From: Candidatus Omnitrophota bacterium
GTDB lineage: Bacteria; Omnitrophota; Gorgyraeia; DTHP01
Length of the DNA stretch: 64,000 bases
Assembly: GCA_023819145.1 (NCBI GenBank)
Contig: JAMWCW010000003.1
Span: 4,321 to 68,320, forward strand
Reading direction: 5' to 3'
The notes under the pieces are model-generated. The model was not told the origin of the DNA, did not search any database, and worked only from the letters and a program-made list of their open reading frames with translations. Positions within the stretch are counted from its first letter, which is position 1; every line of letters starts with the position of its first letter. Below are positions 19,080 through 57,644 of this stretch, piece after piece. The position numbers and the translations under genes are program-made.

Positions 19080-20158
19080 GAAAGACACTTGCTGAGATAG
19101 CGGCGATTATTGAAGGAGAGGTAGTTGGAGACCCTAATACTATTATTACGGGAATATGCGGGATAAAGGAAGCAAAGGAAGGAGATATTACTTTCGTAGC
19201 AAATTCAAGATATCTCTCTTTGATGAATCAAACACACGCCTCTGCCATAATTACTTCACGCGAAGTCAAATCTGCACCTAAGCCAATTGTCCGCACCGAG
19301 AACCCCTCCCTTGCCTTTGTAAAAATGGTTTCACTTTTTGCCCCAAATGAGGTGCATCATCCCAAAGGTATTCATCCCACTGCAGTTATCGGTAAAGATG
19401 TGAAGATTGGCAAGAATGTTTCTATACATGCCTATGCGGTAATTGAGGATAAGGTAGAGCTGGGAGACAATACGGTGATTTATCCCTATGCTTATGTTGG
19501 GCATTATACAAAGATTGGTTTTGATTGTTTAATACATTCACACGTTTCTATAAGAGAGAGGGTTACGATTGGAAACAGGGTTTGTATTCATAGTGGAACA
19601 GTAATAGGTAGTGATGGATTTGGTTTCGCTACGGTTAAAGGTGTGCATCATAAAATTCCACAGATTGGAACGGTGGTGATAGAGGATGATGTGGAAATTG
19701 GTGCGAATGTAACAATTGATCGTGCTCGTTTTGGCAGGACATTTATTGGCAAGGGGACGAAGATTGATAATCTTGTACAGATTGCTCACAATGTAGAAAT
19801 TGGAGAGAATTCAATTATTGTTGCTCAAACAGGTATTTCCGGAAGTACGGTAATTGGTAAAGGAGTTACTTTAGCAGGTCAGTCGGGCATAGTAGGACAT
19901 ATTACGATAGGGGATAATGCAGTAATCGCTGCCCAAGCAGGGGTTACCAAATCGGTTCCTCCCAACACTTGCGTTTCAGGTTATCCTGCTAAGCCACACA
20001 GTTTGGCGAAAAGGATAAATGCCTGTATTCAGAGATTACCTAAATTGTTTGAAACGGTTGCGGAATTAAAGAATAAATTACAAGATTTATCTCAAGAGTT
20101 GTCCAACCTGACGGTAAAGGAGAATATAGATAATGGAGTATCAAAAGACAATCGGTAA
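19076..20158 (+). CDS. lpxD: UDP-3-O-acylglucosamine N-acyltransferase
   Basis: 360 aa; hexapeptide-repeat left-handed beta-helix; lpx cluster context. Confidence 0.9.
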   Translation: MRKTLAEIAAIIEGEVVGDPNTIITGICGIKEAKEGDITFVANSRYLSLMNQTHASAIITSREVKSAPKPIVRTENPSLAFVKMVSLFAPNEVHHPKGIHPTAVIGKDVKIGKNVSIHAYAVIEDKVELGDNTVIYPYAYVGHYTKIGFDCLIHSHVSIRERVTIGNRVCIHSGTVIGSDGFGFATVKGVHHKIPQIGTVVIEDDVEIGANVTIDRARFGRTFIGKGTKIDNLVQIAHNVEIGENSIIVAQTGISGSTVIGKGVTLAGQSGIVGHITIGDNAVIAAQAGVTKSVPPNTCVSGYPAKPHSLAKRINACIQRLPKLFETVAELKNKLQDLSQELSNLTVKENIDNGVSKDNR

Positions 20159-21458
20159 AGAGGTGGAATTGAAAGGAACGGGTTTACACACCGGAGAAGA
20201 AGTAAGAATTAAATTTAAACCTTCTTTACCGGACGCAGGAATAGTTTTTAAGCGTATAGACCTGCCAGGCAAGCCTTTTATTCAAGCCACGATGAATAAT
20301 ATAATCGATATAAACAAGAGTCCACGCCGGACTTCTATAGGGAGCAATGGCGGAGAAGTCCATACTATTGAACATTTGATGGCAGTTCTCTCTATTCTTA
20401 ATATCGATAATATCTTGATAGAGATTGATGGACCGGAAGTTCCGGGGATGGATGGCAGTGCGTTCCCTTTTCTGGAGGTTTTGGAAAATGCCCGCATAGA
20501 AACGCAGAATGCTTTACGAAAGCTTTTTCAGATTAGAGACCCTATTTGGATTAGTGAAGGAGATTCCAGTATAGTAATTTTACCCAGCCAAGAATTTAAA
20601 ATTTCCTATCTTCTTTCTTATGACCACCATCCCTATTTAAGACCTCAGTATTTAAATTTTGTGGTCAATAGAGATATCTTTATGAAAGAGATTGCTCCTG
20701 CGAGAACATTTTGTCTTAAGGAAGAAGTGGAAGTTTTAAAAAATCAAGGGTTAGGTTTGGGTGCTAATTATGAGAATACCGTAGTGGTGGGAGAGAAAGG
20801 AATATTGAAAAACAGATTGCGTTTTGAAGACGAATTTGCACGTCACAAGGTTCTCGATTTGATTGGAGACCTTTATCTCTTGGGATACTCTTTGAAGGGG
20901 CATGTAATTGCCATAAAGAGTGGGCATCCCCTCAATATAAAAGTGTTGCAAAAAATTGAACAGCAGCGAATTCGTCTTGTTGAAGGAGCAATAAAATCTG
21001 TTTCTACAAATTTTGAATTAGAGAAAGCCTATTTAGATATAAATGATATCCAAAAAATTTTGCCTCATCGCTATCCTTTCCTTTTTGTAGATAAGATAAT
21101 AGAAATCCAGGAGGACAAACGGGCGGTGGGTATAAAGAATGTGACCATCGACGATTACTACTTTCAAGGGCACTTTCCAGGAAGGCCGGTAATGCCAGGA
21201 GTGCTTATTGTAGAGGCGATGGCCCAGGTTGCAGGGGTGCTTATGCTTTCTAAGAAAGAGAATCAAGGGAAACTTGCTTATTTTATGAGCATAGACAATG
21301 TAAAGTTTAGACGTACTGTTCTTCCGGGAGACCAATTGCATTTAGAAGTAGAGGTGGTTCGATTAAAATCTAAAACAGGTCAAGTCCATACCAAGGCATT
21401 CGTGGATTCTAAGATTGTAGCGGAGGCTGATTTGATGTTTGCCTTGGTAGATGCTTGA
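20133..21458 (+). CDS. lpxC: fused UDP-3-O-acyl-GlcNAc deacetylase / 3-hydroxyacyl-ACP dehydratase (LpxC-FabZ)
   Basis: 441 aa; N-terminal LpxC domain, C-terminal FabZ hot-dog domain ([27 protein letters not shown]). Confidence 0.9.
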
Positions 21459-48590: not shown

Positions 48591-49503
48591 TTTCTTTAAT
48601 CTTCTCAAGAATCTGAAAAGCAAGTTTTAAGGCAAGATAGGCTTCTTCTCCGGAGACAATAGGATTTGATTTCTTATGCAGGCAATTTATGAAAGAAGTT
48701 ATTTCTGCTTTTAAAGGTTCTTCTTTTTTTACAGAAAGTAAGCGAGACACAATTCTTTTCTTCTCTTTACGATAAACCATTACCTCCTGCTTGAAGTAAT
48801 CTAAGGAGATATAAGCACTCTCTTTGAAAATACGTATCTTACGCATTATCTCATCGGAAACACGGCTGGCAGTAAGATTACAGATTGTTCCGTCAGTAAA
48901 TTTAATTCTTGCGTTGGCAATGTCTTCATATTTAGTAAGAATTTTTACTCCCATCGCATCGATTGTTTCGATACTTGCTTTAACTAAAGTGAGGATGATA
49001 TCGATATCATGAATCATTAAATCTAAGACTACGCCCACATCTTTTATGCGTGGACTAAATTTGCCTAAGCGATGGCACTCAATAAACCGCGGTTTCCCCG
49101 GCAGTTTCATTATAGTTTGGATTGCTGGGTTAAAACGTTCAATATGACCTACCTGGAGAATGCATTTTTTTTCTTTAGCAATTTTAAGAAGCTCTTCTGC
49201 TTCTTTTATATCTGCCGTAAGCGGTTTTTCTATGAGACAATGGACGCCATTTCTCAAAAAATCTTTCCCAATAGCATAATGGATAGTGGTAGGAACAGCA
49301 ATGCTTACTGCTTCCACCAGAGGGATTATTTTATGGTATTGGGGATAATAGTTTGTTTTTAATAATCGGGCAAGTTTTTTCGCCTTTTCTGGGTTTATAT
49401 CACATACGCCTACCAATTCTACATTCTTCATCTCAGAATATACCCGCGCATGGATAGAACCCAGTTTCCCTACTCCAATAACCGCAACTTTTATCTTATG
49501 CAT
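48556..49503 (-). CDS. Gfo/Idh/MocA family NAD(P)-dependent oxidoreductase (possibly GnnA-like)
   Basis: 315 aa; N-terminal Rossmann KVAVIGVGKLGSIHA; directly upstream of lpxB on same strand. Confidence 0.75.
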   Translation of the reverse strand: MHKIKVAVIGVGKLGSIHARVYSEMKNVELVGVCDINPEKAKKLARLLKTNYYPQYHKIIPLVEAVSIAVPTTIHYAIGKDFLRNGVHCLIEKPLTADIKEAEELLKIAKEKKCILQVGHIERFNPAIQTIMKLPGKPRFIECHRLGKFSPRIKDVGVVLDLMIHDIDIILTLVKASIETIDAMGVKILTKYEDIANARIKFTDGTICNLTASRVSDEIMRKIRIFKESAYISLDYFKQEVMVYRKEKKRIVSRLLSVKKEEPLKAEITSFINCLHKKSNPIVSGEEAYLALKLAFQILEKIKENERKNNFHRCR

Positions 49504-49829
49504 AATGGATAAAATTTTTTATATTATACTACAAACATTTGGATGAATAAAGTCATTTTATCTTAAGTTGGAATGAGATTATTTATTAGAGATATAATTT
49601 CTATTTTCCTAAGATTGAGCTTGACAGAATGTTTTTTTCTTTTCTATAATAAATTTGCTTTTAAAGCGGAAGGAATTTTAGAGTAAACTGTATTTATAGT
49701 TTTAATAACCGTTTTTTAAAATAGTTTTTGCTGAAGTAAATCTTTTTCTAATCCTTCCGCCATTTTTACCTCCAAACACAAATTGTCGTGCATTGGTAAG
49801 TTGATTAATACAAAATGTTGTGTTTTTTC

Positions 49830-49858
49830 TTGACAGTTTTTTTGATGTCTGTTATGAT
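49830..49858 (+). promoter_or_regulatory. sigma70-like promoter proximal to nrdJ
   Basis: TTGACA (49830-49835), 17-nt spacer, TATGAT (49853-49858); flanked upstream by two NrdR-box-like 16-mers. Confidence 0.45.
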
Positions 49859-49900
49859 TTCCCTATAGTTTTTTCGCAAAATGAATAAAGGAGATGAAAA

Positions 49901-52177
49901 ATGGAATATCCTGAGCCAAAACTGAGCGAAAATGCACTGAAGGTTTTAGAGAAGCGCTATCTCTCAAAGAACGAGGAAGGCAAGGTTGTGGAAACGCCGC
50001 GTGAAATGTTTATCCGTGTGGCTAAATATATTGCCTCGGCAGATAGATTGTATGGGAAATCTATAGAAGATACGGATAATCTCTCCGCAAAATTTTATGA
50101 AGTAATGGCTGAAGGTGAATTTATGCCCAATTCTCCCACTTTGATGAATGCTGGAAAGGAGCTTGGGCAACTTTCTGCCTGTTTTGTGCTTCCTGTAGAA
50201 GATTCTATGGAGAGTATTTTTGGAGCAGTGAAGTCAACGGCTTTAATCCACAAGACAGGCGGAGGCACGGGTTTTGATTTCTCAAAACTCCGTCCGAAGA
50301 ATAGTCCGGTGAGGACAACCGGAGGAGTTTCTTCAGGGCCTGTTTCTTTTATGAAAGTATTTAATGCTGCTACGCAGGCGATTAAGCAGGGTGGAACACG
50401 TCGGGGAGCAAATATGGGAATTTTAAGAGTTGACCATCCGGATATTTTGGAGTTTATTACCTGTAAACAGGAAGATAAAGAAATTACCAACTTTAACATC
50501 TCCATTGCGCTCACCGAAGATTTTATGGATAAAGTAAAGAATAGTGAAGAGTATGATTTGGTTGACCCGCGTACCGGCAAAATGGTAAAGAAACTTCCGG
50601 CGCGCGAGGTCTTTGAGCTGATTGTTAAACAGGCCTGGAAAAATGGTGAACCAGGAATCATTTTTATTGACAGAATGAACAAAGACAATCCCACTCCCCA
50701 TTTAGGAAAGATTGAATCAACAAATCCCTGCGGAGAACAGCCCCTTCTTCCTTACGAAAGTTGCAATTTAGGAAGCATCAATTTAGCAAAGATGCTGAGG
50801 TTGGGTGAGGGGAAAACTGAAGTTGACTGGGAAAAATTACGTACCGTTGCCCATGTGGCGGTACATTTTTTGGATAATGTCATTGATATGAATAGATTTC
50901 CTTTACAGGAGATTGAAGAGCGGACAAAACTTACCCGAAAAATTGGTTTAGGAGTGATGGGTTGGGCAGACATGCTTGTAGAATTGGGAATTCCCTATAA
51001 TTCGGAAGAAGCCCTTACTCTTGCAGATAAAATAATGGGTTTTGTTTTAGAGGAAGCGGAGCATAAATCGCAGCAATTGGCAGAGGAGCGGGGGGTGTTT
51101 CCTGCTTTTGAGGGGAGTAGAATTGCCCAACAGGGAAAAAGATTACGTAACGCCACGCTTACTACCATCGCCCCTACAGGAACTATCAGTATCATCGCAG
51201 GAGCCTCAAGTGGGATAGAACCACTTTTTGCCCTCGCCTACACCAGGCACGTTATGGATAATGATAAATTGGTAGAAATAAATCCTTATTTTGAAAAAGT
51301 CGCCCGCGAAAAAGGTTTTTATTCCCGAGAACTAATGGAAAAAATTGCGGAAAAAGGTTCTTGTCAGGATATACCGGAGATTCCCGATGATGTGAGGAAG
51401 GTTTTTGTTACTGCTCACGATATTTCTCCCGAGTGGCATATCCGCATGCAGGCAGTATTTCAAAAATACACGCATAATGCAGTTTCTAAGACGGTAAATT
51501 TCCCTCATCAGGCCACAGTTGAGGATGTTAAAAAAGTTTATCTTCTGGCATATCAATTAGGATGTAAAGGAGTAACTATTTATCGCGATAAAAGTAGAGA
51601 GGAACAGGTTTTAAATATCGCTTCTTCAAAATCGGAAAAACAGGGAAATTCTAAAGAACAAGAAGAACGTTTTACCCCTCGCCCCCGTCCGGAGGTAATG
51701 CGTGGAAGCACTACCAAGATTAATACCGGTTGCGGCAATCTTTACATTACCATCAACGAAGATGAAGAAAAACATCCTTTTGAGGTATTTATGCAGATGG
51801 GAAAAGCAGGAGGTTGTGCTGCTTCGCAACTGGAGGCGATTGGGAGATTGGTTTCTCTGGCACTTCGTTCGGGAATAGACCCGGTACCAATTATTGAACA
51901 GTTAAGGGGAATCAGGTGTCCCTCTCCTTCTTGGGAGAGTGGAGGAACACGTATCTTCTCTTGCGGAGATGCTATTGCCCGAGTTTTGGAACGGCGATTG
52001 GCACAGATGAAAAAATCTTCTCCAGAGATAAAAGTGAAAGTTCTTCATTCCGTTGAAGAAAATAATGTTTATTCGAGAAGGGTTAATATTGTGGGTGTTT
52101 GTCCTGACTGCGGCGAGCCACTAAAGCACGAAGAGGGTTGTGCCAAATGTGAAGCCTGTGGATATGCAAAGTGCTAA
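49901..52177 (+). CDS. nrdJ: adenosylcobalamin-dependent ribonucleoside-diphosphate reductase (class II)
   Basis: 758 aa; NPCGEQPL active-site region, C-terminal Cys-rich zinc finger CPDCGEPLKHEEGCAKCEACGY. Confidence 0.9.
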   Translation: MEYPEPKLSENALKVLEKRYLSKNEEGKVVETPREMFIRVAKYIASADRLYGKSIEDTDNLSAKFYEVMAEGEFMPNSPTLMNAGKELGQLSACFVLPVEDSMESIFGAVKSTALIHKTGGGTGFDFSKLRPKNSPVRTTGGVSSGPVSFMKVFNAATQAIKQGGTRRGANMGILRVDHPDILEFITCKQEDKEITNFNISIALTEDFMDKVKNSEEYDLVDPRTGKMVKKLPAREVFELIVKQAWKNGEPGIIFIDRMNKDNPTPHLGKIESTNPCGEQPLLPYESCNLGSINLAKMLRLGEGKTEVDWEKLRTVAHVAVHFLDNVIDMNRFPLQEIEERTKLTRKIGLGVMGWADMLVELGIPYNSEEALTLADKIMGFVLEEAEHKSQQLAEERGVFPAFEGSRIAQQGKRLRNATLTTIAPTGTISIIAGASSGIEPLFALAYTRHVMDNDKLVEINPYFEKVAREKGFYSRELMEKIAEKGSCQDIPEIPDDVRKVFVTAHDISPEWHIRMQAVFQKYTHNAVSKTVNFPHQATVEDVKKVYLLAYQLGCKGVTIYRDKSREEQVLNIASSKSEKQGNSKEQEERFTPRPRPEVMRGSTTKINTGCGNLYITINEDEEKHPFEVFMQMGKAGGCAASQLEAIGRLVSLALRSGIDPVPIIEQLRGIRCPSPSWESGGTRIFSCGDAIARVLERRLAQMKKSSPEIKVKVLHSVEENNVYSRRVNIVGVCPDCGEPLKHEEGCAKCEACGYAKC

Positions 52178-52278
52178 AGTTTCGTTAATAAGCGAAACAT
52201 AACCCCAGAGGAAGGGGAGAGATATTTTTTTATTTTTGGTTCTTTTGGTCTTTTAAAAAATTTTTATTAACCCCCCCC

Positions 52279-52307
52279 TTGACAATTTAGGAAAAGTATG
52301 CTATAAT
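52279..52307 (+). promoter_or_regulatory. sigma70-like promoter driving structured leader and small-ORF cassette
   Basis: TTGACA (52279-52284), 17-nt spacer, TATAAT (52302-52307). Confidence 0.5.
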
Positions 52308-52314
52308 TAGCTTG

Positions 52315-52440
52315 GAAGTTTTAAAAAGGGAGCCGGCCTAAGAGTAATTCCGGTGCAAGGTAGCCGGGGTATTATACGGTTATCCCGGCGAAGGAGATAG
52401 ATGTGCAGAGAAACAAGTTTAACCAAAAAGGAGGTGTAAG
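52315..52440 (+). promoter_or_regulatory. GC-rich structured 5' leader (two CCGG-based hairpins), candidate cis-regulatory RNA
   Basis: GCCGG...CCGGU and GCCGGG...CCCGGC stems read from sequence; RBS AAAGGAGG before ATG 52441; no family assigned. Confidence 0.3.
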
Positions 52441-52641
52441 ATGAAGAAGGGAATTTTGATTTTGGCGGTGATTTTGGTAACGAGTTTGATGGTTGGTTCA
52501 GTCCACGGTGTCACCCCTAATAATGATAAGAAAGAAATTGGTGTTCTGCCACCATATGATCCAAAGGCAATAGAAAGAGGATTAGATAGTATTAGGAATA
52601 AACAACTTTTCAACTTTATCTTGATTCACCAGATAATATAA
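52441..52641 (+). CDS. small secreted protein (signal peptide), hypothetical; possibly 5' part of a frameshifted gene
   Basis: 66 aa; MKKGILILAVILVTSLMVGSVHG signal-like N-terminus; downstream ORF frame open from 52602 and overlaps this ORF's end. Confidence 0.4.
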   Translation: MKKGILILAVILVTSLMVGSVHGVTPNNDKKEIGVLPPYDPKAIERGLDSIRNKQLFNFILIHQII

Positions 52642-52673
52642 CAAGAGTATTAGAATTATTAGCATTATTTAAG

Positions 52674-52741
52674 GAAAAATTTGTGCCACCGAATCAAAAA
52701 CAAGCTTATTTCTATTTAAATCATTTAGAGGAGCCCCCAAC
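52674..52741 (+). repeat. 68-nt exact direct repeat, copy 1
   Basis: gaaaaatttgtgccaccgaatcaaaaacaagcttatttctatttaaatcatttagaggagcccccaac; identical copy 147 nt downstream. Confidence 0.9.
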
Positions 52742-53330
52742 AGATTACAAAATATATGAAAAACTGGAGCAGAAATCACTACTGACAGAACAATTTATAC
52801 AAGAACTAATAAAAGCGTTTGAAAAATTTGTGCCACCGAATCAAAAACAAGCTTATTTCTATTTAAATCATTTAGAGGAGCCCCCAACTAAAGCCGATGT
52901 TCTAGATTTTTTAAAAGGTTTAGGAGGATTTGATCAAGCCAGTGAGTCGGCAATCAAAAGTTTTATAGCAGACTTAGAGAATGGTAAGGTAGTACTGGGA
53001 GATGTTATACTTACTGGCCATCTTGATCGCCCAGACACAACCGCCGGCGGTGATTTTACCGGGAGTTTTCCCGTATCGACCCTCACTTTGACCATTAATG
53101 TGAGTCCAGTTGGGCTCGATGTTCCCGGTGGCAAACTTGAGATAACATTCGGTAGCCACGGAATGGATGGAAAAATTTCCGAGGGAGTATATGGTCTTTT
53201 GGCATCGGCTCCTAAAGGGCAAATATGGGTTTCTCCTGTATTATTAGCTCTTGTAGGGGAAGGGATAAAGAGTGCACAAGATTCTCGTCGCGCTACCTAT
53301 ACCACGGTACCAATGGGAACAAACGAATAG
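52683..53330 (+). CDS. hypothetical protein with tandem duplicated N-terminal segment (VPPNQKQAYFYLNHLEEPP x2)
   Basis: 215 aa, GTG start; internal 147-nt period with 68 nt identical; C-terminal half Gly/Thr-rich and GC-richer; followed by terminator. Confidence 0.45.
   Translation: MPPNQKQAYFYLNHLEEPPTDYKIYEKLEQKSLLTEQFIQELIKAFEKFVPPNQKQAYFYLNHLEEPPTKADVLDFLKGLGGFDQASESAIKSFIADLENGKVVLGDVILTGHLDRPDTTAGGDFTGSFPVSTLTLTINVSPVGLDVPGGKLEITFGSHGMDGKISEGVYGLLASAPKGQIWVSPVLLALVGEGIKSAQDSRRATYTTVPMGTNE
52821..52888 (+). repeat. 68-nt exact direct repeat, copy 2
   Basis: Identical to 52674..52741 by direct reading; in-frame (147 nt = 49 codons) within the same ORF. Confidence 0.9.
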
Positions 53331-53357
53331 TATTTTACCTTAACTAATTTCCCATCG

Positions 53358-53398
53358 ACCCCCGGAATTTATTTAGCGCAGGTTCCGGGGGTTTTTTA
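53358..53398 (+). terminator. intrinsic terminator closing the 52.3-53.3 kb cassette
   Basis: ACCCCCGGAA ... TTCCGGGGGT stem followed by TTTTTTA. Confidence 0.8.
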
Positions 53399-53399
53399 T

Positions 53400-53428
53400 T
53401 TGCCAACTTCTCTTTTATTTGGTATAAT
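53400..53428 (+). promoter_or_regulatory. sigma70-like promoter upstream of apgM
   Basis: TTGCCA (53400-53405), 17-nt spacer, TATAAT (53423-53428). Confidence 0.45.
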
Positions 53429-53450
53429 ATTTTCATAAAATAATCTAAGG

Positions 53451-54722
53451 ATGAGAAAGATTCTTTACATTGTTTTAGATGGTTTAGGCGACCGGCCACA
53501 TCCAAATTTTGGGGACCAGACTCCTTTGGAGTCAGCAGCTATTCCTTACCTTAATCGGCTGGTAGAAGCAGGGCAGTCAGGTTTGGTTTATACGGTGGGG
53601 AAGAACATTGCTCCTGAATCTGATGTGGCGGTAATTAGTATATTGGGTTATGATGCGCATAAATATTATACCGGTCGTGGTCCCTTAGAGTGTTTTGCCG
53701 AAGGTTTAAAAGTAAAGGATGGAGATTTGGCTTATCGCGTCAATTTTGCGACACTGGGGGAGAAAAGAGAGATAATTGACCGGCGAGTAGGGAGAAACCT
53801 TACTACTCCGGAAGCTACTCTTTTGGCAAAAGAGATAAATGAAAAAGTAAAACTCAGGGAAGCCGAGTTTGTTTTCAAAAATACCATTGGGCACCGCGGG
53901 GTACTACTTATCCGCTCTAAAAAAGGGAAATTGTCCGCCAAAGTTACCAACACTGACCCCGCCTATGGTAAAGAAGGAGTTTTTGGGGTTGCAAAAGAAG
54001 AATTTGAGAACTTTGTACAGAAATGCCTTCCCGAAGATTCTACCCAAGAGGCAAAATTAGCAGCAGAACTTACTAATGAGTTTATGGAGAAAAGTCAGGA
54101 GGTTCTTGCTAAATCAGAGATAAATAGGAAGAGAGTAAAGGAAAATAAGCTACCTGCCAATGTAATTTTAACCCGGGATGCTGGAGATAAACTGCCAAAA
54201 TTTCCCTCCCTAAAAGAGAAATTTGGGATAAATTTTGGTTGTTTTGTGGAGATGCCTGTAGAGAAGGGAATTGCTTTGCTTACGGGAATGGAGATTATAG
54301 ATTTGCCTCTTCCTACTGGAGATCTAAAGAACGATTATACTCTACGTGCTTCTCGGACTTTAGAAGCGATTAATAAATTTGATGGCCTCTATATCCATCT
54401 CAAGGGTCCCGATGAACCCGCCCATGATGGGAATTTTCTTAAGAAGAAGGAAATCATTGAAGCGATAGATCGATTTTTCTTTGGAAGGCTATTAACCTCC
54501 CTTGAACTTAAGGATTGTGTTATCGCGGTTACTGCTGACCATTCCACGCCCTGTATCCTTAAAGCGCATTCCGCTGACCCCGTACCGCTAGTTATCTCAG
54601 GTGGAAATATCCCAAGCGATGAAGTAAAGTTGTTTTCAGAGAATCAGGCTCGAAACGGAGCATTGGGAGAGTTGGAGGGAAGGGAGGTTCTTTCCAAGAT
54701 TATAGAGTTTGCTTCTCGTTAA
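53451..54722 (+). CDS. apgM: 2,3-bisphosphoglycerate-independent phosphoglycerate mutase, archaeal type
   Basis: 423 aa; LYIVLDGLGDRP N-terminus and C-terminal ADHSTP metal-binding motif. Confidence 0.85.
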   Translation: MRKILYIVLDGLGDRPHPNFGDQTPLESAAIPYLNRLVEAGQSGLVYTVGKNIAPESDVAVISILGYDAHKYYTGRGPLECFAEGLKVKDGDLAYRVNFATLGEKREIIDRRVGRNLTTPEATLLAKEINEKVKLREAEFVFKNTIGHRGVLLIRSKKGKLSAKVTNTDPAYGKEGVFGVAKEEFENFVQKCLPEDSTQEAKLAAELTNEFMEKSQEVLAKSEINRKRVKENKLPANVILTRDAGDKLPKFPSLKEKFGINFGCFVEMPVEKGIALLTGMEIIDLPLPTGDLKNDYTLRASRTLEAINKFDGLYIHLKGPDEPAHDGNFLKKKEIIEAIDRFFFGRLLTSLELKDCVIAVTADHSTPCILKAHSADPVPLVISGGNIPSDEVKLFSENQARNGALGELEGREVLSKIIEFASR

Positions 54723-54822
54723 TTTTTTTTCTTGCCATTTACCTTATTTTTAAGATAGAATTATAAAATAAAATAATAATTTTAGAGAGCAGAGTTTTTA
54801 ATTCTGCAAACCCCGGAGGTGA

Positions 54823-55983
54823 ATGATGGAAAAGAAAGATTTGGCTAAATTTACAAAAGAAGAACTTCTGGAACTGGCCAAGAAACTGAAAATTGTTGGC
54901 AGGTATGCGTATACTAAAGATGAGTTGATGGATAAGATTGTTAAAAGATATAAAACTCTGAATAAAAATAAGGCTAAACCTGCCCCTGAGAGGAAACTGC
55001 CACGGATAATTGAGAAAGTAAAAAAGGTTATTACTCGGGGAAGGAAGAAGAAAGAAGTTAGCCCTGTTGTTTTAGGAGAAAAAAGAGTAGAAGAAAGGGC
55101 CCCCCGGCCATATTGGGAGGCACCGGTAGAACCTGCTCAAACAGTTCCTCAGCCACAAAAGGAAGAAATTTCTGTAGCCGTTGCCCCTGCGCGAGAGGAA
55201 ATGTTTACCTTCCCTCGTGCATATGGTGATACTAAAATTGTTCTTTTAGTACGCGACCCTTGGTGGTTACATGCCTACTGGGAGATCAATAGGGAAAAAG
55301 AGGAAGAACTGAGGAAGAAATTGGGAGATTTATATGCTCGTTCAAAATACCTTTTAAGAGTTTATGATATTACGGATATTATTTTTGATGGGACAAATGC
55401 CCACTCCTATTTTGATATTGAGATTAATGGTGGAGCAGACAACTGGTATATTGAAGTGGGGAAACCCAATCGTTCCTGGTGTGTAGATTTGGGATTGTTG
55501 ACTCCCGACAAAAAATTCTTCTTAGTCTGTCGTTCCAACGTAGTGCGCACCCCCCGTTTTGGAATGTCGGAGATTACCGATGAAGAATGGATGAGTCTGG
55601 AAGAGGATTATTGGAAGTTATTTGGGGTAGCCGGCGGGTTTGGTTTAGGTAGTTCGCCTGTTCAGGCAAAGCGTGCCTTTAAACGTCGTTTCAAAGAAGA
55701 CATTTCTTCGGGTGCTCCCTGGAGTCTTTTTAGTCTGCTGGAGAAAGAGAAGGAACGCAAATTCTGGTTGGTAGTGAATACCGAGTTGATTGTCTATGGA
55801 GCAACCGAGCCCGATGCCAAGGTTACAGTGCAGGGGAAGCTAATTAAACTGCGCAATGATGGGACATTTACTCTGCGTTTTGCTTTGCCCGATGGAATGC
55901 AATACATCCCGGTAGAAGCAGTTTCTTCTGATGGAGTAGACAAGCGGAAAGTTACTCCGGTAGTTTCCCGTCGCACCGAATAG
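54823..55983 (+). CDS. DUF4912-like protein with Rho-N-like N-terminal domain
   Basis: 386 aa; N-terminal FTKEELLELAKKLKIVG motif; partner of downstream GH57 gene. Confidence 0.55.
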   Translation: MMEKKDLAKFTKEELLELAKKLKIVGRYAYTKDELMDKIVKRYKTLNKNKAKPAPERKLPRIIEKVKKVITRGRKKKEVSPVVLGEKRVEERAPRPYWEAPVEPAQTVPQPQKEEISVAVAPAREEMFTFPRAYGDTKIVLLVRDPWWLHAYWEINREKEEELRKKLGDLYARSKYLLRVYDITDIIFDGTNAHSYFDIEINGGADNWYIEVGKPNRSWCVDLGLLTPDKKFFLVCRSNVVRTPRFGMSEITDEEWMSLEEDYWKLFGVAGGFGLGSSPVQAKRAFKRRFKEDISSGAPWSLFSLLEKEKERKFWLVVNTELIVYGATEPDAKVTVQGKLIKLRNDGTFTLRFALPDGMQYIPVEAVSSDGVDKRKVTPVVSRRTE

Positions 55984-56051
55984 AAGAAAGCAAACTCAAA
56001 TTGCAAAAATCAAAAAAGTAAGAGGATTCTTGTTTTTCAAAAATTTACCAA

Positions 56052-57644
56052 ATGAATGAGAAAGGTTATCTTGCTTTAGTTTTACACGCCCATCTTCCTT
56101 TTGTCCGCCATCCGGAATACGAAGACTTCTTGGAAGAGCGTTGGTTATTTGAAGCCATTACGGAAACCTATATCCCTCTTTTAAATGTTTTTGAGCGTTT
56201 ATTAGAGGAGAATATGGATTATTGTCTTACCATGTCTATAACCCCGACACTTGCCTCTATGCTTACCGACCCCCTTTTACAGCAAAAATATTTAAGGAAT
56301 TTAGAAAAACTGATTGAGCTTGCCGATAAAGAAGTTACCCGCACCCGTTGGCAGAGTGATTTTCACCAGCTTGCACTGATGTATTATCACCGTTTTACCC
56401 ATACCCGCTATGTATTTGTAGATAAGTATAAAATGAATCTTATACCCGTCTTTCGCAGACTTCAGGAAGCAGGAAGGCTGGAGATTATTACCTGTGCAGG
56501 AACCCATGCTTATTTACCTCTGGCTTTACATCGTCAGGCAGTAAGGGCACAGATAAAGACAGGGGTAGATTTATATCAGAAGTTGTTTGGAACGCGTCCA
56601 AAGGGAATTTGGCTTCCAGAATGCGGTTATAATCCCGGTGACGATGAAATTCTTAAAGAGGAGGGTATAAAATATTTTATTATGGATACACATGGGATAC
56701 TTTTTGGCTCTCCCCGGCCAAAATATGGAGTTTATGCACCCTGCTATTGCAAATCAGGAGTGGCTGCTTTTAGCAGGGATATGGAATCTTCTAAATCTGT
56801 TTGGTCTTCTATTGAAGGTTATCCCGGAGATTATAATTACCGTGAATTTTATCGCGATGTGGGATATGACTTGGATTATGAATATATTAGACCCTATATA
56901 AATCCCGATGGAACAAGAGTAAATACCGGTATAAAATATTATCGGATTACCGGAAAAACCGACGATAAACAGCCGTATGTTCCAAGTTGGGCAACTGCCA
57001 AGGCAGCCGAACACGCCGGTAATTTTATGTTTAACCGGGAAAAACAAGTAGAGTACCTCTATAGCATTATGCATCCACGCAAACCCATTATTATTTCCCC
57101 TTACGATGCCGAGCTATACGGCCACTGGTGGTTTGAAGGACCACAGTGGCTTGACTTTCTTATTCGTAAAATAAATTTTGACCAGAAGACTATCAAATTG
57201 ATTACTCCTTCTCGCTATTTAGAAATTTATCCCAAGAATCAGGTGCTTACTCCTTCAATGTCTAGCTGGGGCTGGAAAGGTTATTCCGAGGTTTGGTTAG
57301 AGGGGTCCAATGATTGGATATATAGACATCTACATAAGGCAGCCGAGAGAATGGCGGAACTTGCAAAGGCAAACAATCATCCTCATGTGGATGGTCTTAA
57401 ACAGCGCGCTTTGAATCAGATGGCACGTGAACTGATGCTTGCTCAATCAAGCGACTGGGCCTTCATCTTGAAAACCGGAACTTTTACCACTTATGCAGTA
57501 AGGAGGATTCGCGACCACATTGCCCGCTTTACCTACCTTTATGAACAGGTCAAAGAAAACCGCATAGATGAGGGATGGCTGAAGTCAATTGAGGATAAAG
57601 ACAATCTCTTTCCGGAAATTAACTATCGAATCTATGCAGAGTAA
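56052..57644 (+). CDS. glycoside hydrolase family 57 alpha-glucan branching/processing enzyme
   Basis: 530 aa; LALVLHAHLPFVRHPE N-terminal GH57 signature. Confidence 0.8.
   Translation: MNEKGYLALVLHAHLPFVRHPEYEDFLEERWLFEAITETYIPLLNVFERLLEENMDYCLTMSITPTLASMLTDPLLQQKYLRNLEKLIELADKEVTRTRWQSDFHQLALMYYHRFTHTRYVFVDKYKMNLIPVFRRLQEAGRLEIITCAGTHAYLPLALHRQAVRAQIKTGVDLYQKLFGTRPKGIWLPECGYNPGDDEILKEEGIKYFIMDTHGILFGSPRPKYGVYAPCYCKSGVAAFSRDMESSKSVWSSIEGYPGDYNYREFYRDVGYDLDYEYIRPYINPDGTRVNTGIKYYRITGKTDDKQPYVPSWATAKAAEHAGNFMFNREKQVEYLYSIMHPRKPIIISPYDAELYGHWWFEGPQWLDFLIRKINFDQKTIKLITPSRYLEIYPKNQVLTPSMSSWGWKGYSEVWLEGSNDWIYRHLHKAAERMAELAKANNHPHVDGLKQRALNQMARELMLAQSSDWAFILKTGTFTTYAVRRIRDHIARFTYLYEQVKENRIDEGWLKSIEDKDNLFPEINYRIYAE

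Follow-up and report, generated by a model that had tools for sequence, protein, structure and literature searches.

The junction between nrdJ and apgM, the genes for a ribonucleotide reductase and a phosphoglycerate mutase, respectively, carries a self-contained transcription unit made up of a promoter, a leader, two ORFs, and a terminator (positions 52279 to 53399, forward strand, of the 64,000-nucleotide stretch of Omnitrophota DNA analyzed here, referred to below as the window). Our analysis indicates that this unit is probably a single clade-restricted, rapidly evolving gene for a Sec-exported protein, split in this copy by a frameshift. The gene is genuine but fairly ordinary and lineage specific; it is neither foreign DNA nor regulatory RNA. 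We infer export, the strength of expression, the nature of the frameshift, and the order of gain and loss from sequence, and the most likely role of the protein is that of a periplasmic or surface/extracellular structural or interaction protein.

The ORF list and codon scores place ORF1 (52441 to 52641, +, frame 1, 66 aa), comprising a signal peptide and the start of the mature protein, ahead of the protein body in frame 0 (52602 to 53330, +), which is open for 242 codons and is annotated as a 215-aa product starting at GTG 52683. The N terminus of ORF1, MKK followed by 16 hydrophobic residues and VHG, is of the classical Sec type and bears out the signal peptide that the sequence-only reading had assigned to it. 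It reads MKK-GILILAVILVTSLMVG-SVHG, with predicted cleavage after VHG (signal peptide at 52441-52509, +) and V as the next residue; the maximum 15-residue Kyte-Doolittle mean is 2.87. A positively charged n-region, a hydrophobic h-region of 10 to 16 residues, and small neutral residues at -3 and -1 together predict a Sec/SPase I signal. No L-x-x-C lipobox is present and ORF1 contains no Cys at all, which rules against a lipoprotein (SPase II) signal.

ORF1 and the open ORF2 frame share 40 nt, read in different frames (52602 to 52641, +), and this zone, recognized from the open frame and the switch in codon score, is where we place a -1 frameshift joining ORF1 to ORF2. The ORF2 frame is open from 52602, 81 nt upstream of the annotated GTG, and runs for 242 codons after the shift with no stop. 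At about 52600 the frame favored by the codon-usage score changes from 1 to 0: the ORF1 tail beyond this point is strongly negative for coding and is probably out of frame past about 52605, whereas the overlap read in the ORF2 frame scores like a genuine gene (0.273 per codon), with the body at 0.233 to 0.273 per codon against 0.269 ± 0.039 for the genes of the window. The open ORF2 frame upstream of the GTG, the change in codon usage at this point, and the counterpart in another Omnitrophota metagenome-assembled genome (MAG; L085), which is a single 202-aa ORF, make it most likely that the 66-aa and 215-aa ORFs belong to one gene interrupted by a -1 frameshift near 52602-52641. A single missing base, perhaps one from the TTTT run at 52607-52610, would split the gene in this way; the joined reading passes through NKQLFQLYLDSPDN and would give a protein of about 296 aa. 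The frameshift may have arisen very recently, as an inactivating mutation or a strain variant, or it may be an assembly error, and the lack of secondary stop codons argues that the event is recent or artefactual. Ten neighboring genes of the window were checked and each matched its domain over the full length, so frameshifts are not widespread on the contig. Comparison with L085 cannot locate the exact position of the shift, as the L085 protein has no N-terminal extension. A candidate third repeat unit in ORF1 (VLPPYDPKA against FVPPNQKQA, 137 = 3n - 1 nt from the next copy) would have pinpointed the loss of one base had it been significant, but it was rejected on shuffling (P of about 0.06 to 0.66).

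The L085 ortholog (L085:3209-3817) begins with the signal peptide MKAKAMLGVIVALVVGLVVSSAYG, which has the same layout as that of ORF1 (maximum Kyte-Doolittle mean, 3.05) and aligns with it. It lies at the same nrdJ-apgM junction, and its promoter, ribosome-binding site, and terminator can be aligned with those of the window. The homologous region, identified by BLASTP and Smith-Waterman alignment, covers residues 87 to 218 of the 242-aa reading (52860 to 53255, +) and includes the shared motifs ADVLDF and FIADLENGKVVLGDV. BLASTP gave 36% identity over 58 aa between ORF2 and the L085 protein, and the Smith-Waterman score over about 130 residues was 79, compared with 32.4 ± 5.4 for shuffled sequences (z = 8.7; reached by 0 of 2,000 shuffles). 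An apparent "ORFan" thus had a positional ortholog that sequence searches had passed over. The window and L085 proteins are the two family members found, both at one chromosomal position, and with two members arguments from conservation are thin.

The mature protein would consist of a helical N-terminal part with a recently duplicated or gene-converted 49-aa unit and a Gly/Thr/Pro-rich alpha/beta C-terminal domain with no recognizable fold, the signal peptide ahead of them being cleavable. The 49-aa unit appears at the DNA level as a perfect 68-nt direct repeat (family D1) with copies at 52674 to 52741 (+), encoding EKFVPPNQKQAYFYLNHLEEPPT, and 52821 to 52888 (+), 147 nt (49 codons) apart and in frame; the L085 protein has a single copy. 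Gly, Thr, and Pro make up 31.9% of the C-terminal half of ORF2 against a background of 15.3%, as the sequence-only reading had noticed, and AF2 run without an alignment modeled the full body with a pLDDT of 56 and the C-terminal domain with one of 73. Searches of Pfam, NCBIfam, PHROGs, PADLOC, and PDB sequences with both ORFs, the L085 protein, and a two-sequence profile gave only noise, in keeping with the earlier remark that no domain is recognizable; the best hit was SDHAF2 (E = 0.014, 17 bits), on the N-terminal part found only in the window. As for known defense or toxin-antitoxin modules, PADLOC was empty at E ≤ 1 and Pfam gave nothing above noise. When 5.8 billion protein clusters were searched by word index, first with the joined protein and then with the two-member profile, only the deposited protein itself came back; scans of metagenome and viral contigs with the protein were empty, and no paralog or DNA copy was found elsewhere in the window. 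The suggestion of an undescribed protein with a signal peptide therefore held, in that no family, fold, or Rfam match was found and export is predicted.

HMMER against 1.84 billion cluster representatives returned the protein itself and four others (P0002 to P0005), which are large receptor-kinase-like proteins with a repeat of about 50 aa ("EFQVNTYT...DGKFVVTW...GQDG...GIYGQ") for which neither Pfam nor PDB offers an identity. In the 242-aa reading, residues 149 to 204 or so are similar to one such unit (31 to 33% identity). Individual units score 8 to 13 bits against ORF2 (best single unit, 12.7) and the maximum for shuffled queries was 9.1 bits; since shuffled queries fall short, the similarity is not compositional, but the total of 56 bits is a sum over non-independent repeats. 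ORF2 differs from these proteins in having one unit only and in being modeled by AF2 as an alpha/beta domain, not a propeller blade, and kinship to their propeller-like repeats is unproven.

Upstream of the gene, the left boundary of the unit is a weak nrdJ terminator recognized by folding (52203 to 52237, +; a CCCC..GGGG stem and then a T-run), which aligns with the left flank of the L085 unit. It is followed by an AT-rich region (52238 to 52278, +) ending in a C8 tract (52271-52278) immediately before the -35 hexamer. The left flank and promoter together align between the window and L085 (z = 13.7), the upstream region being aligned to L085 positions 2966 to 3084. The predicted sigma-70 promoter (52279 to 52307, +), described earlier as near consensus, is in fact perfect: TTGACA-17-TATAAT matches at 12 of 12 positions, with an extended -10 TG at 52299-52300. 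Three perfect promoters occur in the 64-kb window against 0.13 expected from shuffles, all three upstream of genes. Both hexamers, the 17-nt spacer, the gene downstream, and retention in relatives (as TTGACA-17-TATACT in L085 and L087) are as expected of such a promoter. At the other end, folding and an inverted repeat (I19) define the unit's own predicted intrinsic (Rho-independent) terminator (53357 to 53399, +), a GC-rich stem-loop directly before a U-tract; the stem has 14 bp, the loop has 9 nt, and the T-run reads UUUUUUAU. At -22.2 kcal/mol (z = -4.0), the terminator is as strong as had been claimed; a simple terminator scan passed over it because its loop is longer than 8 nt. Its T-run abuts the -35 hexamer of the apgM promoter (53400 to 53428, +; TTGCCA-17-TATAAT in the promoter scan), which forms the right boundary and is kept in L004 and L085. 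Terminator and apgM promoter together align with L085 (z = 11.6). The promoter-to-terminator unit described in the sequence-only reading was thus recovered, with its promoter, leader, two ORFs, and terminator.

The leader, delimited by sequence and folding, runs from the predicted transcription start at about 52314 to the ATG at 52441 (52314 to 52440, +) and is about 127 nt long, close to the earlier estimate of about 125 nt, with a GGAGG ribosome-binding site at 52430-52434. Of the two CCGG-based hairpins attributed to it, hairpin 2 (52363-52389) is stable (-16.1 kcal/mol, z = -2.75), whereas hairpin 1 is on a par with shuffled sequence (-5.9 kcal/mol, z = -0.31). Neither the whole leader (z = -0.38) nor that of L085 (z = -0.90) folds better than shuffled sequence. 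The 3' end of the stable hairpin lies 52 nt before the ATG, and the L085 leader has a hairpin of different sequence at an equal distance from its start codon. The 3' part of the leader and the start of the gene (52412-52457, including the ribosome-binding site) align with L085 (z = 7.0); the 5' half is not conserved there, and the leader is absent in L087, where the same promoter is followed by one of only about 30 nt. No Rfam match was obtained for 52100-53500 even at E ≤ 10, the best scores of 11 to 17 bits against thresholds of 39 to 86 bits all belonging to unrelated eukaryotic or sRNA families, and a scan of the whole window at gathering thresholds found one tRNA only. A 12-codon upstream ORF (uORF) with its own GAAGGAG site (52401-52439) was considered as an element and rejected, as its ATG is missing in L085.

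In L004, L089, L003, and about a dozen other Omnitrophota, the gap between nrdJ and apgM is about 100 nt or less; the junction is therefore empty in most relatives, but L085 holds the ortholog. Other genes occupy it in L005, L008, L015, and L055, and in L087 a homologous promoter precedes different cargo, a 427-aa protein that was rejected as a family member (hhalign probability, 0.2%). In an apgM tree, a single-gene neighbor-joining tree without support values, the window is sister to L004/L089, with their empty junction, and L085 falls in a neighboring clade. The L004 spacer aligns to both the left and right flanks of the L085 unit, the two alignments meeting in a T-run, and its 5' part aligns with the L085 counterpart of the weak nrdJ terminator. 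To judge from these alignments, the empty 100-nt junction of L004/L089 seems to have arisen by a deletion that joined two T-runs. The common ancestor of the window and L085 species probably had the unit, and the L004/L089 lineage would have lost it later through a deletion with its ends in two T-rich terminator tails. The idea that the unit's terminator is the ancestral nrdJ terminator was rejected: in the alignment the hairpin of L004 falls on the left flank of the L085 unit and matches the place of the window's weak nrdJ terminator, not that of the unit's terminator.

The sequence-only reading had raised a foreign origin, and a horizontally acquired, GC-richer cassette inserted between nrdJ and apgM would fit the empty junction of the sister species and of most Omnitrophota, the different cargo seen in other relatives, and the absence, apart from the repeat-protein matches, of any homolog with E ≤ 1e-3 among representatives of the clusters into which about 15 billion proteins had been grouped. 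The compositional claim holds for one part only: the C-terminal half of ORF2 has a GC content of 0.480 (top 0.3% of same-size windows) and is the sole outlier, whereas the whole unit is ordinary at 0.396 (z = 0.65) and the leader reaches 0.465 (top 8%). The excess in the C-terminal half sits in codon positions 1 and 2 and stems from its Gly/Thr/Pro-rich amino acid content; its GC3 of 0.354 (range within the unit, 0.255 to 0.354) compares with 0.334 ± 0.051 for the genome, and the codon score of the unit differs by no more than 1 SD from that of the genes in the window. Neither mobility genes (integrase or transposase), a tRNA target, nor long flanking repeats were found at the unit, which is bounded by short T-rich stretches only; the single tRNA gene of the window lies at 9702. 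The empty L004 site is in line with a deletion between T-runs, and the presence of an ortholog of the unit at this site in L085, with flanks that can be aligned, favors vertical descent followed by loss over import. With host-like synonymous sites and codon usage as well, we regard foreign acquisition as very unlikely.

It is also unlikely, in our judgment, that the unit is a genuine two-gene operon encoding a secreted 66-aa peptide (about 43 aa when mature) and a cytoplasmic 215-aa protein from GTG 52683, for example a partner or immunity protein of the peptide. As annotated, neither ORF is interrupted, the 215-aa product is present in the NCBI record, an AAGGA motif 7 nt upstream of GTG 52683 could allow ORF2 to be translated alone, and the absence of frameshifted neighbors among the genes checked means that the shift may be real and tolerated. 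However, the ortholog joins signal peptide and homologous domain in one ORF, which speaks against a separate "signal-peptide micro-ORF"; past about 52600 ORF1 codes badly and the ORF2 frame well; and PADLOC and Pfam gave no match to toxin, immunity, or bacteriocin families. Very unlikely, too, is a regulated module, in which a leader riboswitch or attenuator, or a programmed or phase-variable frameshift, would set the level of full-length exported protein. The long leader, its stable hairpin with an equidistant counterpart in L085, the uORF, and the C8 tract against the -35 hexamer are what would suggest it. The empty Rfam scan and the lack of excess folding tell against it, as they did against the structured leader and "small regulatory module" proposed earlier, together with the unconserved 5' half, the short L087 leader, and the missing uORF start. 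A frameshifting signal is likewise lacking: the ORF1-frame codons at 52600-52641 (AAA CAA CTT TTC AAC TTT ATC TTG ATT CAC CAG ATA ATA TAA) contain no X XXY YYZ slippery heptamer, homopolymers in the overlap are no longer than T4, and the frameshift is not conserved, as the L085 ORF is uninterrupted.

On the reading of a single split gene, the deposited 215-aa protein, MCM8783618.1 (P0001; locus tag NC818_02410), is probably a signal-less fragment of the longer precursor, and its annotation should be corrected. The unit also offers a worked example of a false foreign-DNA signal, in which a local rise in GC came from amino acid composition. The phylum is full of uncharacterized lineage-restricted exported proteins, to which this adds one more, of little import in itself; within this Omnitrophota clade the junction serves as a variable slot whose strong promoter is conserved, which would be of use should the surface or secreted factors of these uncultured nanobacteria draw interest. 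Omnitrophota have been argued in one report (PMC10066038) to be largely ultra-small, host-dependent or predatory cells. A bolder reading, and an improbable one, is that the unit encodes a highly expressed, rapidly diversifying exported protein of unseen fold, confined to one small Omnitrophota clade and acting at the cell surface in cell-cell or host interaction, with the junction as a cargo-exchange slot and the frameshift as natural on/off variation between strains.

Besides the repeat proteins discussed above, three known systems invite comparison. The mRNAs of highly expressed envelope proteins, such as that of E. coli ompA, carry stabilizing hairpins in the 5' untranslated region, and our unit likewise has a long leader, a stable stem-loop, a strong ribosome-binding site, and a gene for a predicted exported protein; its hairpin, however, lies about 50 nt into the leader and not at the 5' end, in a comparison of two sequences. 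As in frameshift-split genes in MAGs, overlapping ORFs in adjacent frames together rebuild the single ORF of the ortholog, but the contig has no further split genes among those checked, and the in-frame GTG with its ribosome-binding-site-like motif could permit distal expression. With orphan SPase I-secreted proteins, the window protein shares the n/h/cleavage layout with small -3/-1 residues, the lack of a conserved domain, very rapid divergence (the best segment is about 36% identical, whereas the neighboring apgM is 79% identical), expansion of an internal repeat, and a strong promoter of its own, and it differs in that its two-member family is tied to one chromosomal position and the copy here is frameshifted.

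Between nrdJ (49901-52177) and apgM (53451-54722), on a 144-kb contig of a Candidatus Omnitrophota metagenome-assembled genome (MAG), lies a transcription unit whose deposited product is a 215-aa protein (MCM8783618.1, locus tag NC818_02410). Its promoter (52279-52307), described as near-consensus in the sequence-only reading, in fact matches TTGACA-17-TATAAT at every position and carries the TG of an extended -10. Three perfect promoters were found in the 64-kb window (35430, 49621, and 52279), against 0.13 expected from shuffles, and all three are on the coding strand just 5' of genes; a chance match is therefore very unlikely. The terminator at 53357-53399 (14-bp stem, -22.2 kcal/mol, z = -4.0, then a T-run) is as strong as had been claimed, although its loop, longer than 8 nt, hid it from a simple terminator scan. 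The leader of ~127 nt had been read as structured, with two hairpins; this held for hairpin 2 (52363-52389; -16.1 kcal/mol, z = -2.75), which exceeds shuffled sequence, but not for hairpin 1 (z = -0.31) or the entire leader (z = -0.38), which fold no better than shuffled sequence. An Rfam scan of the unit and the whole window, a check suggested by the same reading, found no family relevant to the leader, and with its shuffled-like folding we rejected a riboswitch.

A 12-codon uORF in the leader (MCRETSLTKKEV; 52401-52439) has its own GAAGGAG site and stops 1 nt short of the main ATG; the relative that carries an orthologous unit (L085) lacks the uORF start codon, and this uORF is probably not meaningful. 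A C8 homopolymer (52271-52278) adjoins the -35 hexamer; the corresponding bases are CCCACCC in L085 and CCCAGACC in another relative, L087, and the L085 leader contains a G9 run (L085:3125-3133). The length of such tracts could differ from cell to cell or from strain to strain.

Two open reading frames are found within the unit: ORF1 (52441-52641; 66 aa), with a textbook predicted Sec signal peptide, and ORF2 (GTG, 52683-53330; 215 aa), which contains a perfect 68-nt direct repeat with copies 147 nt apart. The ORF2 frame is open from 52602, 81 nt 5' of its GTG, and shares 40 nt with ORF1, in the -1 frame. The frame-specific codon score is positive in the ORF1 frame up to ~52600 and strongly negative thereafter, while the ORF2 frame is positive from there and gene-like in the overlap (0.273 per codon). 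One added base, e.g., in the TTTT run at 52607-52610, would give a 296-aa precursor.

The best argument for joining ORF1 and ORF2 in one gene comes from L085 (GCA_037442605.1; apgM 79% identical; L086 is another assembly of this sequence), which has an orthologous unit at the same junction. Its left flank and promoter align to window 52192-52309 (z = 13.7), its ribosome-binding site and start region to 52412-52457 (z = 7.0), and its terminator and apgM promoter to 53360-53452 (z = 11.6). The L085 gene is one intact 202-aa ORF whose signal peptide aligns with that of the window protein; the product has no Pfam match, contains only one copy of the repeat unit, and is homologous to ORF2 over ~130 residues (BLASTP, 36% identity over 58 aa; Smith-Waterman score of 79 versus 32.4 ± 5.4 for shuffles, reached by 0 of 2,000). 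Such weak similarity next to 79% identity in apgM indicates a far higher rate of evolution in this protein than in those encoded beside it.

The change of frame in the codon score and the single ORF in L085 thus argue against the separate signal-peptide micro-ORF that had been proposed, and on the same grounds a two-gene regulatory module was rejected; ORF1 and ORF2 are probably one gene, and the deposited 215-aa annotation is probably a truncated form. The overlap contains neither an X XXY YYZ slippery site nor a long homopolymer, making programmed frameshifting unlikely, and all 10 neighbouring genes checked in the window gave full-length domain matches, so the contig is not generally error-ridden. 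The frameshift reflects either fresh inactivation, strain variation, or mis-assembly.

The unit had also been taken for a GC-richer cassette of possibly foreign origin. The C-terminal half of ORF2 is indeed GC rich (0.480, top 0.3% among same-size windows), but the whole unit is ordinary (0.396, z = 0.65). The excess is confined to codon positions 1 and 2 (GC1+2 of 0.544, reached by 0 of 1,184 genic windows), whereas GC3 (0.354 versus 0.334 ± 0.051) and the ORF2 codon-usage score (0.233 per codon, <1 SD from 0.269 ± 0.039) are typical of the window's genes; it is thus amino-acid content that raises GC here. The Gly/Thr/Pro richness noted for this half was confirmed (31.9% versus 15.3% background). 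Composition gives no sign of foreign origin, and the unit is not foreign DNA.

As the sequence-only reading had anticipated, the protein has no recognisable domain: family, solved-structure, and fold searches found no match. Beyond the protein itself, the only database matches were four long, kinase-domain repeat proteins, whose ~50-aa unit resembles ORF2 residues 149-204; with only 8-13 bits per unit, and a total obtained by adding non-independent repeats, this kinship is an unproven lead. In these four large proteins, many ~50-aa "EFQVNTYT..DGKFVVTW..GQDG..GIYGQ" units follow one another in tandem (the unit has neither a Pfam model nor a PDB relative); they also have cadherin-like domains, a stalk rich in Ser and Thr, a transmembrane segment, and, at the C-terminus, a protein kinase domain.

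In the proposed working of the unit, the strong constitutive promoter would start transcription and the GGAGG site translation; Sec would export the precursor, signal peptidase I would cleave after VHG, and the mature protein of ~273 aa would come to lie either in the periplasm or at or beyond the outer membrane. The presence of lpxB, lpxC, and lpxD in the window indicates a diderm cell. The frameshift in the assembled sequence would separate signal peptide from body. Taken together, sequence comparison points to a real, autonomous unit coding for a new, clade-restricted, fast-evolving, predicted exported protein.

Elsewhere in the window, one 441-aa ORF directly 3' of lpxD (20133-21458) joins an LpxC domain (residues 4-275) to a FabA/FabZ-like dehydratase domain (residues 310-432), and a SpoVG homolog (9168-9620) matches the 82-position Pfam profile over residues 23-145, with a zinc-ribbon-like insertion at residues 80-102.

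Both neighbours of the unit have features of their own. The window nrdJ (758 aa) is without an intein; in-frame inteins occur in nrdJ of many relatives (L007, L085, L087/L088, L009, L010, L012, L058, and L076), including a 398-aa insertion at residue 277 in L007 (L007:3164-4357) matching LAGLIDADG_3 and Intein_splicing, insertions at residues 118 and 277 in L012, and two inteins in the 1,512-aa L085 product (L085:1-2909). The region 5' of nrdJ (49450-49900) is very AT rich (GC 0.25-0.28), with near-consensus promoters at 49621 (12/12) and 49830 (11/12) from which a leader of up to ~250 nt may arise; no Rfam family, cobalamin included, reached threshold there. The order apgM-DUF4912-GH57 glycoside hydrolase (53451-57644) is kept across the clade, in L001, L002, L003, L054, L084, L085, L087, and L091-L093, with an IS110-family transposase gene between the latter two genes in L087. 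A short repeat-rich element (ACGCACGGATAAAATCGCGGAACCACGCGG...ACGCAGAAC; L085:2941-2993 and L086:6661-6764) closely follows nrdJ and recurs in that genome, inverted and direct, in the space separating the DUF4912 gene from the GH57 gene. This element may belong to the REP-like intergenic repeats, and the L003, L004, and L087 spacers contain related ACGCAGA motifs.

We gathered apgM loci from 185,579 species genomes, JGI metagenomes, and exact look-ups of the closest apgM proteins. The closest apgM is only 82% identical, and public data contain this species only once, part of the reason for the protein's "ORFan" status. The synteny check suggested earlier gave a mixed answer: nrdJ lies next to apgM in most Omnitrophota (gap ~10-100 nt), and the junction is empty in the sister species L004/L089 (apgM 82-84%; 100-nt gap) and in L003, but it is occupied in L085. 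In an apgM neighbour-joining tree (single gene, no support values), the window is sister to L004/L089, L085/L087 lie in the neighbouring clade, and L003 falls outside both. The 5' end of the L004 spacer aligns to the L085 left flank (in the window, the weak nrdJ terminator region), and the 3' end matches the L085 right flank, with the apgM promoter. A T-run marks the point where these alignments join, the remnant expected from deletion between the T-tails of the two terminators. Most parsimoniously, the unit would have been gained once before the window/L085 split, then lost in L004/L089 and replaced in L087.

L087/L088 (apgM 76%) retain the left flank and promoter, with 74.6% identity to L085 across 134 nt, here driving an unrelated 427-aa HTH/Sigma70_r4 protein with a hydrophobic, signal-peptide-like N-terminus, followed by toxin-antitoxin-like genes; in L087 this cargo is a 3.5-kb island. 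Other occupants are dcd (dCTP deaminase) in L005 and L008 and an amino-acid permease fused to PTS EIIA in L015; the L014 junction holds ~480 nt of non-coding DNA, and L055 has MNT/HEPN and IS200-like transposase genes just 5' of apgM, with no nrdJ upstream. The strong promoter and AT-rich region just 3' of nrdJ are kept in three species (L087:1026-1160, L085:2954-3083, and window 52192-52309), and from these alignments the promoter appears either to predate its cargo or to be the more stable of the two. The nrdJ-apgM junction in Omnitrophota (window equivalent, 52178-53450) is a variable slot, and this slot behind a conserved promoter is the more interesting residue of the analysis.
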